A DNA stretch of 64,000 nt, taken from the NCBI RefSeq assembly GCF_054482525.1, contig NZ_CM137006.1. One strand, 5' to 3'. A model generated the notes under the pieces. That model did no database searches, was not told where the DNA came from, and saw nothing but the letters and a program-made list of their open reading frames with translations. The position numbers and the translations under genes were made by a program. This document shows, piece by piece, positions 11,580 to 48,618 of this stretch. The number at the start of each line of letters is the position of its first letter. Position 1 is the stretch's first letter.

Positions 11580-11656
<77 letters not shown>

Positions 11657-11688
11657 TCACCGTACTGCTTTATTTCATCAAATTTGAT

Positions 11689-11765
<77 letters not shown>

Positions 11766-11798
11766 TCACCGTACTGCTTTACTTCATCAAATTTTAAT

Positions 11799-11875
<77 letters not shown>

Positions 11876-16197: not shown

Positions 16198-16403
16198 AAA
16201 AAAAAGCACCGCAATTAGGCGGTGCTACATTAATCACTATGGACAGACAGGGTAAATGTACAGGAAGTGAAAAAAGGTAGCTTTGCTACCATGGTCTGAA
16301 TCGCAGACCAATTGCAAACACAACAACACAACATCACAACCGTAAGCCAAAAGTTCACCAGAACACGCATTCCGATAAAACTTTTCGTTCCGGCTCAGGA
16401 AGT
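16198..16403 (-). ncRNA. gcvB: GcvB small regulatory RNA (Hfq-dependent, represses amino-acid/peptide transporters)
   Basis: 206-nt sequence recognised (5' ACTTCCTGAGCCGGAACGAAAAGTTTTATCGG... 3' GCACCGCCTAATTGCGGTGCTTTTTTTT on minus strand); G/U-rich target-binding regions; intrinsic terminator; divergent from gcvA. Confidence 0.9.
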
Positions 16404-33866: not shown

Positions 33867-34412
33867 GTGGACGATTTGACCGCACAAGCCCTGAAAGATT
33901 TTACTGCACGCTACTGCGATGCGTGGCATGAAGAGCATAAAAGCTGGCCGTTAAGTGAGGAACTGTACGGCGTTCCTTCACCGTGCATTATTTCAACCAC
34001 CGAAGATGCCGTATACTGGCAACCCCAGCCGTTTACCGGGGAACAAAATGTAAACGCGGTTGAACGCGCTTTTGATATTGTGATACAACCCACAATTCAT
34101 ACCTTTTATACGACTCAGTTTGCCGGGGATATGCATGCGCAGTTTGGCGATATCAAACTGACATTGCTACAAACCTGGAGTGAAGACGACTTCCGTCGGG
34201 TGCAGGAAAATCTGATTGGTCATCTGGTGACTCAGAAAAGGCTAAAATTGCCGCCCACGCTATTTATCGCGACGCTGGAAGAAGAGTTAGAGGTCATCTC
34301 GGTGTGTAATCTCTCCGGTGAAGTGTGTAAAGAGACGCTGGGAACACGTAAACGGGCGCATTTAGCCTCAAATCTTGCGGAATTCCTTAATCAACTTAAG
34401 CCTCTTCTGTAA
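33867..34412 (+). CDS. syd: SecY-interacting protein Syd
   Basis: 181 aa; sequence and position. Confidence 0.9.
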
Positions 34413-34431
34413 TCCAAATACCCCATCTGGT

Positions 34432-34449
34432 TGTGAGAGATCTCTTACA
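34432..34449. promoter_or_regulatory. UvrY (GacA-family) binding palindrome upstream of csrB
   Basis: Perfect 18-bp inverted repeat TGTGAGAGATCTCTTACA about 180 bp upstream of the csrB 5' end. Confidence 0.7.
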
Positions 34450-34619
34450 GACTCTGTAGGAGATCGCCAGGAAATAAGCGAATACTTAAAAAGATAAGAA
34501 TCGTTATTTTCATTTAAAATCAATATATTGCTTGTTAATCCTTAACTTTCATATGAAATTTTCCTTAAGGCATTGTCTGTAAGCGCCTTGTAAGACTTCG
34601 CGAAAAAGACGATTCTATC

Positions 34620-34988
34620 TTCGTCGACAGGGAGTCAGACAACGAAGTGAACATCAGGATGATGACACTTCTGAAGGACACACCAGGATGGTGTTTCAGG
34701 GAAAGGCTTCTGGATGAAGCGAAGAGGATGACGCAGGACGCGTTAAAGGACACCTCCAGGATGGAGAATGAGAACCGGTCAGGATGATTCGGTGGGTCAG
34801 GAAGGCCAGGGACACTTCAGGATGAAGTATCACATCGGGGTGGTGTGAGCAGGAAGCAATAGTTCAGGATGAACGATTGGCCGCAAGGCCAGAGGAAAAG
34901 TTGTCAAGGATGAGCAGGGAGCAACAAAAGTAGCTGGAATGCTGCGAAACGAACCGGGAGCACTGTGAATACAGTGCTCCCTTTTTTT
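34620..34988 (+). ncRNA. csrB: CsrB small RNA (CsrA-sequestering sRNA)
   Basis: About 369 nt with roughly 20 GGA-containing motifs (CAGGAUG/AGGA) in predicted loops; ends in GGGAGCACTGTGAATACAGTGCTCCC hairpin plus T7 terminator; 5' end approximate. Confidence 0.9.
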
Positions 34989-35033
34989 ATTCCTGCTATC
35001 CTTCGCGGCAGTTTTTCTTATTGAGGTTGCTTT

Positions 35034-35363
35034 ATGACCACTCATGACCGCGTTCGTCTCCAGTTGCAGGCGCTTGAAGCGTTACTGCGTGAACATCAGC
35101 ACTGGCGAAACGATGAACCCCAGCCGCATCAATTTAACAGTACCCAACCGTTCTTTATGGACACCATGGAACCACTGGAGTGGTTGCAGTGGGTGCTTAT
35201 TCCGCGAATGCACGATTTGTTAGATAACAACCAGCCGTTACCGGGCGCTTTTGCCGTTGCTCCCTATTATGAAATGGCGCTGGCGACGGACCATCCGCAA
35301 CGCGCGCTTATTCTGGCTGAGCTGGAAAAACTGGATGCTCTTTTTGCGGATGATGCGAGCTAA
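35034..35363 (+). CDS. yqcC: DUF446 protein
   Basis: 109 aa; 1-nt overlap with truC start. Confidence 0.85.
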   Translation: MTTHDRVRLQLQALEALLREHQHWRNDEPQPHQFNSTQPFFMDTMEPLEWLQWVLIPRMHDLLDNNQPLPGAFAVAPYYEMALATDHPQRALILAELEKLDALFADDAS

Positions 35364-41334: not shown

Positions 41335-44091
41335 TTACCCTAGAATTTTGCTGGCTTCGCGCGCTACATTATCCATCTCGTCCAACAGTTCCAGCAGCTC
41401 CGGCTCCAAATCTTCTTCTTTAGTACCGCTACGTAGCTGTTGTTCGATCAGTTGGCAGAGATTCTTCATACGCGGCACACCGCTATAGCCGCAACTGCCA
41501 TGCAGTTTATGAATCAAATCAACCAGGCCTTCCGGGTTTTCTCCAACCAGCTGTTCCTCAACTTTGTTGCGAACTTCAGGCAGGAAATCGAGTAACATTT
41601 GCAGCATATCGCGCGCTAAATCGGTTTTTCCTGCTGCCTGGCGTAGTGCCAGTTGCCAGTCGAGGGTCGCATTCGGGTTCACCACAATTTCGTTGACTTC
41701 GGGCGTCACGACGCGAGAGGAAATACCGCTGCCAGGCTTGTAGCGCAACAGCAAATTATGCAATCGCTCTTCTTCAATCGGTTTCGCCAGATAATCGCTC
41801 ATCCCTGCGCCAAGCAGCTTCTCTTTTTGCCCGGCCATTGCATGCGCCGTTACCGCGATAACTGGCGTTTGTTGCTGATGGGGGAGCTGGTGGATGAGTT
41901 CGCAGGCCCGAATGCCGTCCATGTCCGGCATTTGAATATCCATTAAGATCAAATCGAACGGCATCTGTTTCGCCCGTTCAACCGCCTGATGCCCGCTATC
42001 GCAAAGTTCCACATGTTGCACCATATCTTCCAGCAATGCGCCGATAAGTTTCAGGTTAGCGGGGTTGTCATCAACCGCCATGACTGTCATTGCCAGCTTA
42101 CTTTCATCGGTTACAGGCAAAAGCGTGTTTTGTTTGTGATGACAAAATTCCGTCAGGGCAGGTAACAGGCGCGTAGGTGTTAATGGTTTCAGCAGACACG
42201 CGCCGATACCATCTTGCTTAAGTTTTTCAGCATTGACTTGTGCATGGCAAGGAAGTGCCAGCATGAGAAAATCGGTCATCGATACCGCTTTCGCTAATCG
42301 CTCATGTTGCATTGTTAGCGGCTCGCGGAAGGTCACCGCAATGCCTAATAACATCATGTCGTAATGCGCGGGAGGCAGCGCGGAGAACGTTGGGCTATAA
42401 ACCACTTCCAGCGGCGTTTCACTTAAAATATCCAGCGTGCATTGCGCTGCTGCGGAGTTTGGTTCGACATAGGCCAGGCGCTTGCCGGCGAGGCACTGGG
42501 TGGATGGCCCTTCGATAATAATGTTCGGGTTCAGATCGAGATTAATGTGGAACCAGAAAGTTGAACCGCGATTCGGCTGGCTATGGAACGAAATATCGCC
42601 GCCCATTTCATTAACCAGTTTTTGTGTAATCACCAGCCCCAGCCCGGTGCCACCATGACGGCGGGAAATACTGGCATCAGCCTGTCGGAAGGCCTGGAAT
42701 AAGCGCGATTGATCGCGTTCAGGAATACCAATGCCGGTATCCCGAATCTGCACTTCAATCTGAACTTTGGTATTACTCAGCGCACGTTTTTCTACCAGAA
42801 TATCAATGTTGCCATTCTCGGTGAATTTAATTGCATTCCCTACCAGGTTAGTGATGATTTGCTGTAATCGCAGTGGGTCGCCAATTACGTTATCGGGCAC
42901 GTCGCTCTTAATATTGAGCGTCAGTTCCAGCCCTTTATCGTGAGAAGAATGTGCCAGCAGGGTAACTACTTCATCCAGCGTGCTGCGTAGTGGGAATGGA
43001 ATACTTTCCAGAATCAGCTTACCTGCTTCCAGTTTCGAGAAGTCGAGAACATCATTAATAATTGCCAGCAAATTATTTGCCGAACGTTCAATCGTATTCA
43101 GGTGATCGCGCTGCGTTGGTGTTAATTCTGTTTTCAGCGTCAGGCGGGTAAAGCCAATAACACCATTCAGTGGTGTACGCAGCTCGTGTGACATATTTGC
43201 CAAAAACTCGGATTTAATACGCGCCGCTTCCTGGGCGCGCTTTTTCGCCAGATCCAACTCAACGTTCTGAATTTCCATCTGCTCCAGCGTTTCACGCAGA
43301 TCGGACGTCGCCTGGTCGATATTGTGCTGCATCTCTTCGTGATAAGCAGCCAGCGACATTGCCATCGAGTTGATACCGTTTTTCAGCATATCCAGCTCGC
43401 CGAGCATAAATCCTTCCACCCGGCTGTCGAGTTGCCCGCGACGGATGCGGTCGACGGTATTCACCATATTGCGAATCGGACCGGTTACATCGCGCATTAA
43501 GCGCCAGCCAAAAATAAGCGCAATACCGATACAAAACAGCATCATCACGCTGGAAATAAAGATCTCTTTATATTGCTGCAAGCGAACCGATTTAAGATCC
43601 AGCTCAAGCGCAATATATCCCAACATATTTTGACTATTTTTGGCATCGCTACTGGGCGATTCGTCGGGGGAGTAACTCTCAGAAATAATCGGCGTGCGGA
43701 GGATCATAATATCGCCGTCACGAGTGACAGTGAGCTGGCGAGGAAACGGCACGTTGCTGCCGAGCTGCATTGATGAGGGATCAAGATGAAAATTGGAGGT
43801 GACAAAGAGTCGGTTATTTTCATCATAAACCGAAATCGCGCGAACAATATCGGAATGGCGACGATGCAGTACGCTTATTAACTGACCGATAGATTCGCGA
43901 TTTTGCAGGCTCATGCCATATTCAGTAGAAACTGCAAGCGGCTCAATAATGCTGGCACCGGCATCTTCCAGTTGACGCTGCAAGTCGTTATAGCGATGCA
44001 CAACGAAAAAGATACTCAGCAATAAACCAATAAGGACGGTCGGTGCCAGGATCAGAATCATCATGCGTGCGCGCAGGCTGTAGTTGGTCAT
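41335..44091 (-). CDS. barA: Hybrid sensor histidine kinase BarA (partner of UvrY)
   Basis: 918 aa; two N-terminal TM segments, HAMP, HisKA H-box (SHELRTPLN), HATPase, receiver and HPt domains. Confidence 0.95.
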
Positions 44092-45496: not shown

Positions 45497-47731
45497 ATGG
45501 TTGCGGTAAGAAGTGCACATATCAATAAGGCTGGTGAATTTGATCCGGAAAAATGGATCGCAAGTCTGGGTATTACCAGCCAGAAGTCGTGTGAGTGCTT
45601 AGCCGAAACCTGGGCGTATTGTCTGCAACAGACGCAGGGGCATCCGGATGCCAGTCTGTTATTGTGGCGTGGTGTTGAGATGGTGGAGATCCTCTCGACA
45701 TTAAGTATGGACATTGACACGCTGCGGGCGGCGCTGTTGTTCCCTCTGGCCGATGCCAACGTAGTCAGCGAAGATGTGCTGCGTGAGAGCGTCGGTAAGT
45801 CGGTCGTTAACCTTATTCACGGCGTGCGTGATATGGCGGCGATCCGCCAGCTGAAAGCGACGCATACCGATTCTGTTTCCTCCGAACAGGTCGATAACGT
45901 TCGCCGGATGTTATTGGCGATGGTCGATGATTTTCGCTGCGTGGTCATCAAACTGGCAGAGCGTATTGCTCATCTGCGCGAAGTAAAAGATGCGCCGGAA
46001 GATGAACGTGTACTGGCGGCAAAAGAGTGCACCAATATCTACGCGCCGTTGGCGAACCGTCTTGGGATTGGGCAACTGAAATGGGAGCTGGAAGATTACT
46101 GCTTCCGTTATCTCCACCCGACCGAATACAAACGCATCGCAAAACTGCTGCATGAACGCCGTCTCGACCGCGAACACTATATCGAAGAGTTTGTCGGCCA
46201 TCTGCGCGCTGAGATGAAAGCTGAAGGCGTTAAAGCTGAAGTGTATGGTCGACCGAAACACATCTACAGCATCTGGCGCAAAATGCAGAAAAAGAACCTC
46301 GCCTTCGATGAGCTGTTTGATGTGCGTGCGGTACGTATTGTCGCCGAGCGTTTACAGGATTGTTATGCCGCACTGGGGATAGTGCACACTCACTATCGCC
46401 ACCTGCCGGATGAGTTTGACGATTACGTCGCTAACCCGAAACCAAACGGTTATCAGTCTATTCATACCGTGGTTCTGGGACCGGGTGGAAAAACCGTTGA
46501 GATCCAAATCCGCACTAAACAGATGCATGAAGATGCAGAGTTGGGTGTTGCTGCGCACTGGAAATATAAAGAGGGCGCGGCAGCTGGCGGCGCACGTTCG
46601 GGACATGAAGACCGGATTGCCTGGCTGCGTAAACTGATTGCGTGGCAGGAAGAGATGGCTGATTCCGGCGAAATGCTCGACGAAGTACGTAGCCAGGTCT
46701 TTGACGACCGGGTGTACGTCTTTACGCCGAAAGGTGATGTCGTTGATTTGCCTGCGGGATCAACACCGCTGGACTTCGCTTACCACATCCACAGTGATGT
46801 CGGACACCGCTGCATCGGGGCAAAAATTGGCGGGCGCATTGTGCCGTTCACCTACCAGCTGCAGATGGGCGACCAGATTGAAATTATCACCCAGAAACAG
46901 CCGAACCCCAGCCGTGACTGGTTAAACCCAAACCTCGGTTACGTCACAACCAGCCGTGGGCGTTCGAAAATTCACGCCTGGTTCCGTAAACAGGACCGTG
47001 ACAAAAACGTTCTGGCTGGGCGGCAAATCCTTGACGACGAGCTGGAACATCTGGGGATCAGCCTGAAAGAAGCAGAAAAACATCTGCTGCCGCGTTACAA
47101 CTTCAATGATGTCGACGAGTTGCTGGCGGCGATTGGTGGCGGGGATATCCGTCTCAATCAGATGGTGAACTTCCTGCAATCGCAATTTAATAAGCCGAGT
47201 GCCGAAGAGCAGGACGCCGCCGCGCTGAAGCAACTTCAGCAAAAAAGCTACACGCCGCAAAACCGCAGTAAAGATAACGGTCGAGTGGTAGTAGAAGGTG
47301 TCGGTAACCTGATGCACCACATCGCGCGCTGCTGCCAGCCGATCCCTGGAGATGAGATTGTCGGCTTCATTACCCAGGGACGCGGTATTTCAGTACACCG
47401 CGCCGATTGCGAACAACTGGCGGAACTGCGCTCCCATGCGCCAGAACGTATTGTTGATGCGGTATGGGGCGAGAGCTACTCCGCCGGATATTCGCTGGTG
47501 GTCCGCGTGGTGGCTAATGATCGTAGTGGGTTGTTACGTGATATCACGACCATTCTCGCCAATGAGCAAGTGAACGTGCTTGGCGTTGCCAGCCGTAGCG
47601 ATACCAAACAGCAACTGGCGACCATCGACATGACCATTGAGATTTACAACCTGCAAGTGCTGGGCCGCGTGCTGGGTAAACTCAACCAGGTGCCGGATGT
47701 TATCGACGCGCGTCGGTTGCACGGGAGTTAG
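45497..47731 (+). CDS. relA: GTP pyrophosphokinase, (p)ppGpp synthetase I
   Basis: 744 aa; sequence recognised. Confidence 0.95.
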   Translation: MVAVRSAHINKAGEFDPEKWIASLGITSQKSCECLAETWAYCLQQTQGHPDASLLLWRGVEMVEILSTLSMDIDTLRAALLFPLADANVVSEDVLRESVGKSVVNLIHGVRDMAAIRQLKATHTDSVSSEQVDNVRRMLLAMVDDFRCVVIKLAERIAHLREVKDAPEDERVLAAKECTNIYAPLANRLGIGQLKWELEDYCFRYLHPTEYKRIAKLLHERRLDREHYIEEFVGHLRAEMKAEGVKAEVYGRPKHIYSIWRKMQKKNLAFDELFDVRAVRIVAERLQDCYAALGIVHTHYRHLPDEFDDYVANPKPNGYQSIHTVVLGPGGKTVEIQIRTKQMHEDAELGVAAHWKYKEGAAAGGARSGHEDRIAWLRKLIAWQEEMADSGEMLDEVRSQVFDDRVYVFTPKGDVVDLPAGSTPLDFAYHIHSDVGHRCIGAKIGGRIVPFTYQLQMGDQIEIITQKQPNPSRDWLNPNLGYVTTSRGRSKIHAWFRKQDRDKNVLAGRQILDDELEHLGISLKEAEKHLLPRYNFNDVDELLAAIGGGDIRLNQMVNFLQSQFNKPSAEEQDAAALKQLQQKSYTPQNRSKDNGRVVVEGVGNLMHHIARCCQPIPGDEIVGFITQGRGISVHRADCEQLAELRSHAPERIVDAVWGESYSAGYSLVVRVVANDRSGLLRDITTILANEQVNVLGVASRSDTKQQLATIDMTIEIYNLQVLGRVLGKLNQVPDVIDARRLHGS

Positions 47732-47740
47732 TCTTACATA

Positions 47741-47781
47741 GCTGGATATGGCGTCAGCCGTATCCAGCGATATCTTTTACT
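47741..47781 (+). terminator. Putative relA-distal hairpin / terminator
   Basis: GCTGGATA-12 nt loop-TATCCAGC followed by U-rich GATATCTTTT. Confidence 0.4.
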
Positions 47782-47826
47782 CGAAGGTATTACACCTGAC
47801 AGACCCGCAATTTTCAGGACAATTCA

Positions 47827-48618
47827 ATGAATCAAATCGACCGTTTGCTCACTATTATGCAGCGCCTGCGCGATCCGGAAAACGGCTGCCCGTGGGATAA
47901 AGAGCAGACATTTGCCACCATTGCGCCTTACACCCTTGAAGAAACCTACGAAGTGCTGGACGCCATTGCCCGTGAAGATTTTGACGATCTGCGCGGTGAA
48001 CTCGGCGATCTGCTGTTCCAGGTGGTGTTTTACGCACAAATGGCCCAGGAAGAAGGGCGCTTTGACTTTAATGATATTTGCGCCGCGATCAGCGATAAAT
48101 TAGAACGTCGCCATCCGCATGTTTTTGCTGACAGTTCTGCCGAAAACAGTAGTGAAGTGCTTGCCCGTTGGGAGCAAATCAAAACCGAAGAGCGCGCGCA
48201 GAAAGCGCAGCATTCGGTGCTGGACGATATTCCTCGTAGTTTACCGGCTTTAATGCGTGCGCAAAAAATCCAGAAACGTTGCGCCAACGTTGGTTTTGAC
48301 TGGACGACGCTTGGCCCGGTAGTCGATAAAGTCTACGAAGAGATCGATGAGGTGATGTACGAAGCGCGGCAGGCTGTTGTCGACCAGGCTAAACTGGAGG
48401 AGGAAATGGGTGACCTGCTGTTTGCCACAGTCAATCTGGCTCGTCATTTAGGGACAAAAGCGGAAATCGCATTGCAAAAAGCGAACGAAAAATTCGAGCG
48501 TCGTTTTCGCGAAGTGGAGCGTATTGTTGCCGCGCGTGGACTGGAAATGACAGGTGTTGACCCCGAAACAATGGAAGAAGTCTGGCAACAGGTAAAACGG
48601 CAGGAAATTGATCTCTAA
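47827..48618 (+). CDS. mazG: Nucleoside triphosphate pyrophosphohydrolase MazG
   Basis: 263 aa; tandem MazG domains; immediately follows relA with no mazEF between. Confidence 0.93.
   Translation: MNQIDRLLTIMQRLRDPENGCPWDKEQTFATIAPYTLEETYEVLDAIAREDFDDLRGELGDLLFQVVFYAQMAQEEGRFDFNDICAAISDKLERRHPHVFADSSAENSSEVLARWEQIKTEERAQKAQHSVLDDIPRSLPALMRAQKIQKRCANVGFDWTTLGPVVDKVYEEIDEVMYEARQAVVDQAKLEEEMGDLLFATVNLARHLGTKAEIALQKANEKFERRFREVERIVAARGLEMTGVDPETMEEVWQQVKRQEIDL

Follow-up and report, generated by a model that had tools for sequence, protein, structure and literature searches.

The stretch of DNA analyzed here (the window; 64,000 nucleotides from contig NZ_CM137006.1 of RefSeq assembly GCF_054482525.1) contains a csrB small RNA gene at 34623–34991 on the plus strand, with syd (33867–34412) as its upstream and yqcC (35034–35363) as its downstream neighbor. 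The CsrB model of Rfam (RF00018) matches 34632–34991 on this strand, scoring 382.9 bits (gathering score, 71; E = 2e-111). The match spans the entire model (positions 1–356 of 356), and no non-canonical pairs were flagged. The 369-nt csrB gene of Escherichia coli K-12 MG1655 (b4408) maps to 34623–34991 with two substitutions, and position 34623 is therefore taken as the csrB start site. An earlier note on this DNA, made from the letters alone, had already recognized csrB here, and the Rfam search that it proposed agrees. The 3' end that it gave (34988) corresponds to the final T of the T-run in the terminator, but the K-12 mapping and the Rfam match both end at 34991. The intrinsic terminator itself (34956–34988, plus strand) was called by a terminator scan and corresponds to the last helix of the Rfam model; it consists of an 11-bp stem, a 4-nt loop, and a run of seven T residues. 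No open reading frames of at least 80 amino acids were found between 34412 and 35034.

The csrB gene carries 22 GGA triplets, compared with 12.4 expected from base composition, and the earlier estimate of roughly 20 was close to this count. Its antisense strand has only two, and the next-highest number among the other 369-nt stretches of the window is 14. When these triplets were located relative to predicted loops, another check that had been proposed, the Rfam consensus structure had 11 hairpins with GGA in the loop, and the minimum-energy fold placed nine triplets in hairpin loops, eight in single-stranded regions, and five in stems. Taken together, the locus shows a full-length match above the gathering threshold, many GGA triplets, and an untranslated RNA with an intrinsic terminator at its end. 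In K-12, the CsrB RNA acts as a sponge for the protein CsrA (PMC7652899). The RNA encoded in this window differs from the K-12 RNA at 2 of 369 positions and, by extension from it, would also be expected to sequester CsrA (PMC7652899).

The 661-bp csrB locus is 100% identical to that of many complete E. coli genomes, and a match was found in 5,425 of the 5,426 complete E. coli genomes compared, always between syd and yqcC. Based on this identity and distribution, the window is assigned to an E. coli chromosome. A few records in the genome collection are odd: one genome has no match to the locus, 22 genomes have less than 80% coverage, and one match sits on a record labelled as a plasmid. These records possibly represent mislabelled replicons, deletions, or insertions.

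Upstream of csrB, an 18-bp imperfect inverted repeat, TGTGAGAGATCTCTTACA, is located at 34432–34449 (no strand assigned), and its center (34440/34441) is at −183/−182 relative to the csrB start. This 18-mer is letter for letter the UvrY site of E. coli csrB, which was mapped by ChIP-exo and DNase I footprinting and has the same center of −183/−182 (Zere et al., 2015; PMC4682653). In that study the repeat was termed "nearly perfect," it formed the center of the upstream UvrY ChIP-exo peak, and it was protected from DNase I by phosphorylated UvrY (UvrY-P) (PMC4682653). Given that the K-12 sequence is identical, UvrY-P is predicted to bind the box in this window as well (PMC4682653). The earlier note had interpreted the repeat as the known UvrY/GacA-type box at about 180 bp from the transcription start site, which is borne out by the measured center, and the comparison with published ChIP-exo footprints that it suggested retrieved the exact 18-mer (PMC4682653). 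The sequence and coordinates that it gave for the repeat are also correct, but the palindrome is not perfect, as 8 of 9 pairs are complementary and G4 stands opposite T15. Relative to TGTAAGN6CTTACA, 11 of the 12 specified positions match, and a G replaces the A at position 4. Palindromy was rejected as evidence for the site, as the window contains ten 18-mers that pair at 8 or more of 9 positions, compared with 7.3 ± 2.3 in shuffled sequences. The site is instead regarded as real because it is identical to the published footprint and is conserved across species.

A third UvrY-type half-site, TGTAGGAGATCGCC (34455–34468, plus strand), forms a direct repeat of the left arm of the box and begins 5 bp past the inverted repeat. 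Its assignment draws on conservation and on the description of an extra partial site, TGTAGGAGA, 5 bp downstream of the csrB repeat in both E. coli and Salmonella (PMC4682653); in the window, TGTAGGAGA is found at 34455–34463. The 46 bp spanning the box and the third half-site are identical in 4,415 of the 5,426 E. coli genomes, and in one sampled E. coli variant of these 46 bp the change falls outside the box.

Loci from other species were collected by scanning species-representative genomes with the BarA protein and retaining 10-kb flanks, which yielded 71 loci. When the csrB of the window was used as the query, the gene turned up 3' of barA in Pantoea stewartii and in 33 species of Enterobacteriaceae. 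Together with the promoter of the window, 36 promoters of these 34 species were compared (37 in all). In each of these species the box lies upstream of csrB, with its center between −180 and −186, and the 18-mer is identical to that of the window in 28 of the 37 promoters.

The asymmetry of the box is also shared among these promoters. The G..T mismatch at positions 4 and 15 (34435 and 34446) is kept in 31 of the 37. Four promoters, representing three species (loci L025, L046, L031, and L048), have the flipped pair A..C, which turns the box of L025 and L046 into its exact reverse complement. Only two promoters have paired bases (A..T) at positions 4 and 15, each of which is mismatched elsewhere, and none of the 37 boxes is a perfect palindrome. 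Plain inheritance may account for this conserved asymmetry, or it may reflect a preference for unequal half-sites. The box of the urine isolate E. coli A1.S1.18 (locus L004) is TGTGAGATAT-TCTTACA, in which one base is substituted and 1 bp is deleted at the center of the repeat; this change would be expected to weaken UvrY binding, or it may be a sequencing error.

The inverted repeat begins 20 nt past the syd stop codon, and as plus-strand RNA all nine of its positions could pair, with G4/U15 as a wobble. These features would suit a hairpin or terminator at the 3' end of the syd mRNA, in which case the repeat would not be a site for protein binding. However, a palindrome with no loop is unable to fold as drawn, and the A..C flip at positions 4 and 15 in L025, L046, L031, and L048 would break the pair in the plus-strand RNA. 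The distance from the repeat to the csrB promoter is also conserved within a few bp, and UvrY-P footprints the DNA directly (PMC4682653). A syd terminator was ruled out on the basis of this footprint, the absence of a T-run after the repeat, and the absence of a call there in the terminator scan. An RNA hairpin of syd is thus a highly improbable explanation of the repeat, and binding of UvrY-P remains the preferred one.

Between the box and csrB, an IHF-like core, AATCAATATATTG (34518–34530, plus strand; −105 to −93), matches the consensus WATCAANNNNTTR exactly. It lies between the activator site and the promoter, and its position is conserved across species. A putative IHF site was previously placed between the two UvrY cross-linking zones of csrB, and 34518–34530 falls inside that interval (PMC4682653); we infer the exact core from its match to the consensus. 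The core is not strictly fixed, with E. coli U15A having AAACAA for AATCAA. Relative to K-12, the 210-bp region upstream of csrB in the window has four differences (34524, 34527, 34531, and 34540), none of which is in the box. All four cluster in or just past the IHF-like core, and two are in its free NNNN positions.

A sigma-70 consensus scan of 34300–35100 returned no promoters at threshold; conservation and the K-12 start site were therefore used to assign the promoter. The putative −35 element is TTGTAA (−35 to −30), which extends into the conserved TTGTAAGAC (34588–34596, plus strand). The putative −10 region, GATTCTAT (34611–34618, plus strand), includes the hexamer GATTCT (−12 to −7), and the spacing between the two hexamers is 17 bp, which together with the K-12 start site points to TTGTAA as the −35. 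The result of the scan is as expected for a weak, activator-dependent promoter. Farther upstream, about 70 bp from the csrB start, there is a palindrome, AACTTTCATATGAAATTT (34544–34561; core TTTCATATGAAA), that is kept in Escherichia, Citrobacter, Pluralibacter, Pseudocitrobacter, and several other genera, although not in all. A string search of the literature for this palindrome returned unrelated primer sequences only, and we know of no factor that acts at TTTCATATGAAA.

The sequence that overlaps the −35 element, CTTGTAAGAC (34587–34596), contains TGTAAGA, the half-site that makes up the right arm in the UvrY box. The conserved stretch is longer than the −35 hexamer in the majority of promoters, with 21 of the 37 matching all nine bases of TTGTAAGAC. 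This extension might be related to the downstream UvrY cross-link of csrB (PMC4682653). UvrY cross-links both at the distant repeat and near the −35, where the second ChIP-exo signal covers −56 to +25 (PMC4682653). One reading of these observations is that UvrY also binds the half-site overlapping the −35 (TGTAAGAC, 34589–34596) and that IHF loops the two UvrY-bound sites together. However, the in vitro DNase I footprint is found only at the distant site (PMC4682653), and the cross-link near the promoter could arise indirectly through the loop. Moreover, conservation of a −35 element is expected anyway, and csrC has the same downstream cross-link even though TGTAAG is absent near the −35 of the K-12 csrC promoter. 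A second UvrY-bound site joined to the first by IHF is therefore considered unlikely, and the case for a half-site at −35 as a general feature is weak. The preferred reading places UvrY-P at the distant box, probably with the adjacent third half-site.

The layout of these elements is almost constant among the 37 promoters. Measured from the start of the box, the third half-site is offset by 23 bp in 33 promoters and by 22 bp in the other four. The best-scoring match to the IHF consensus is at 85 or 86 bp in 30 promoters and at 84–86 bp in 32; in four Citrobacter and Enterobacter promoters, this match is found 71 bp past the box start rather than at 85–86 bp. The −35 block lies at 154–158 bp overall (155–157 bp in 30 of 37), and the −10 block, which is conserved in nearly all 37, lies at 178–180 bp in 32. 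The spacers between the blocks diverge freely, and the NNNN positions of the IHF core vary. These patterns argue for constraint on the geometry of the upstream complex across the family. In an uncultured Enterobacteriaceae MAG (L031, 15981–17040), two tandem csrB copies are present between yqcC and syd, and each copy has its own upstream box at about −182/−183.

The gene for the hybrid sensor kinase BarA (918 amino acids) is located at 41335–44091 on the minus strand, as indicated by the open reading frame and the NCBIfam model NF008318, and RefSeq has barA at the same place. The BarA equivalog model NF008318 matches residues 1–917 with 1623.9 bits against a cut-off of 890, which upholds the identification in the earlier note, and the next-best model (LetS) reaches 498 against a cut-off of 1650. 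The gene is 6.3 kb from the 3' end of csrB and on the opposite strand, with yqcC, truC, yqcA, and gudPXD intervening.

Among the species compared, the distance between barA and csrB ranges from 1.7 to 9.5 kb, and the differences mainly reflect the presence or absence of the gud operon. With only yqcA, truC, and yqcC in between, E. albertii and strain RIT691 have the shortest distance (1.7 kb), and the longest is found in Pantoea stewartii. In 12 more distant loci, an Rfam scan of the 10-kb flanks found no CsrB near barA. Five of these loci are from Erwiniaceae (Erwinia, Mixta, [Erwinia] mediterraneensis, and two Pantoea), and tblastn searches detected the gud genes, yqcA, and in two cases truC or yqcC up to the end of the flank. 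In these five, csrB is probably located just past the 10-kb flank, so that the Rfam miss does not represent absence. In Yersinia, Rahnella, Rouxiella, Edwardsiella, Moritella, and Alcanivorax, csrB, yqcC, truC, and yqcA are all missing within 10 kb of barA. The first four represent Yersiniaceae and Hafniaceae (four species), with BarA proteins that are 62–64% identical; the last two are more distant genera.

The earlier note viewed the proximity of barA and csrB as genomic linkage of a signaling input and its small RNA output. As a description this is true, but it has no functional weight, given the variable distance, the genera in which csrB is missing near barA, and the unlinked positions of uvrY and csrC. 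On the K-12 map, barA and csrB are at 2.915–2.924 Mb, uvrY is at 1.995 Mb (about 0.92 Mb away), and csrC is at 4.051 Mb (about 1.1 Mb away). The closeness itself could in principle have been selected, with the sensor and the RNA output forming a co-inherited or co-localized module. The location of csrB less than 10 kb past the 3' end of barA in P. stewartii and 33 species of Enterobacteriaceae, the gene order kept up to the flank end in the five Erwiniaceae loci, and the short interval in E. albertii and RIT691 all point in this direction. However, the observed range of distances indicates that tight proximity was not kept, and the six genera above lack csrB and its neighbors near barA. The two genes are on opposite strands with unrelated genes between them, BarA works only through the diffusible UvrY encoded far away, and the equally UvrY-dependent csrC is also distant. 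Selection for closeness is therefore judged quite improbable. Because the diffusible UvrY is encoded far off and csrC is also unlinked, the barA-csrB neighborhood looks like inherited gene order in part of Enterobacterales rather than a functional module.

Several other features of the window were noted. Beyond barA, relA (45497–47731) is followed by a 95-bp interval (47732–47826) and then by mazG (47827–48618). The mazEF toxin-antitoxin pair, which lies between relA and mazG in K-12, is absent here, as in strain CFSAN018748. A GcvB small RNA gene (16198–16403, minus strand; 199 bits) was found by Rfam, and three tandem tRNA genes (11583–11875, minus strand) match the Rfam tRNA model with 61.4 bits each; their position corresponds to that of two annotated tRNA-Met genes in strain CFSAN018748.

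The best explanation for the whole is, almost certainly, an E. coli csrB locus that is activated by BarA and UvrY-P from a distant box with the help of IHF and that produces a CsrA-sequestering RNA; none of the results speaks against this identification. In the proposed sequence of events, the membrane sensor kinase BarA, whose gene is 6.3 kb from csrB on the other strand, would phosphorylate the response regulator UvrY. UvrY-P would then bind TGTGAGAGATCTCTTACA, the center of which is 183 bp upstream of the start site, and probably also the third half-site. IHF, bound in the interval from the box to the weak sigma-70 promoter, would bend the DNA, such that the distant UvrY complex could activate RNA polymerase. 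The resulting 369-nt untranslated RNA, with about half of its 22 GGA triplets in small hairpin loops, would bind and sequester CsrA dimers and thereby relieve the control that CsrA exerts on its mRNA targets. The individual steps (UvrY-P binding, dependence on BarA and IHF, and CsrA sequestration) are taken from experiments on K-12 (PMC4682653; PMC7652899), which shares the box exactly and differs only slightly in the rest of the sequence. In those experiments, UvrY binding at csrB in vivo drops about 35-fold without barA, and csrB expression drops about 10-fold in IHF mutants (PMC4682653). Repositioning of the distant complex by IHF, as at narG, was also proposed for csrB (PMC4682653). Activation from a distance, which the earlier note had deduced from the spacing, was thus already shown by this IHF requirement and the narG analogy, and the note was also right to call the locus known biology; the elements that it listed have all been mapped experimentally in K-12.

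In a defined system with RNA polymerase, UvrY-P, and IHF, csrB transcription was absent (PMC4682653), which implies that at least one further factor takes part in the activation step. A more speculative proposal is that the csrB control region represents a nucleoprotein assembly of fixed geometry with five blocks: the inverted repeat, the third half-site at +23, the IHF core at +85/86, the −35 resembling a UvrY half-site at about +156, and the −10 at about +179. In this proposal, the palindrome at about −70, conserved in part of these species, could be the site of the factor missing in vitro, and UvrY could need unequal half-sites. We regard this combination as doubtful.

The closest known system is K-12 csrB (b4408), which has the same neighbors (syd and yqcC), an identical box, third half-site, and box-to-start distance, and two substitutions in the RNA. 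The window differs from it by the four single-nucleotide changes in the upstream spacer, and no functional difference is in sight. The orthologous csrB in another genus, that of Salmonella enterica (regulated by SirA and IHF), has the same 18-mer with its center at −182/−181, the same extra half-site, and an IHF site between the box and the promoter (PMC4682653). E. coli csrC encodes a second CsrA-sequestering small RNA and is likewise activated by UvrY-P from a distant site, within a cross-linked zone at −223 to −143 (PMC4682653). It differs from csrB in that its repeat, TGTGAGACATTGCCGATA, is less symmetric, its activation is independent of IHF, and it lies about 1.1 Mb from barA. At the narG promoter, NarL binds at −190, IHF at −125, and Fnr at −41, and the analogy to csrB has been drawn (PMC4682653). 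In this analogy, both promoters have a FixJ/NarL-family regulator roughly 190 bp upstream that is brought in by an IHF bend; narG requires Fnr at −41 as a co-activator. IHF also binds the rsmZ promoter (PMC4682653).

GacA boxes with the consensus TGTAAGN6CTTACA are found at rsmY and rsmZ of Pseudomonas and at the csrB genes of Vibrio, where a FixJ/NarL-family regulator also drives the output of small RNAs that sequester CsrA or RsmA. These small RNAs belong to other RNA families, and their boxes are at other positions. To our knowledge, linkage of these genes to a sensor gene is not known.

As a textbook case in which a two-component system drives a small RNA that sequesters a protein, the csrB locus is already known biology. 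The added value of the present analysis is comparative and concerns promoter spacing across species and the gene order of barA and csrB. The neighborhood of these two genes does not represent a general design principle. The conserved promoter layout extends an observation made in E. coli and Salmonella to the whole family, and the nearly fixed spacing across Enterobacteriaceae supports the view that activation from −183 depends on strict geometry.
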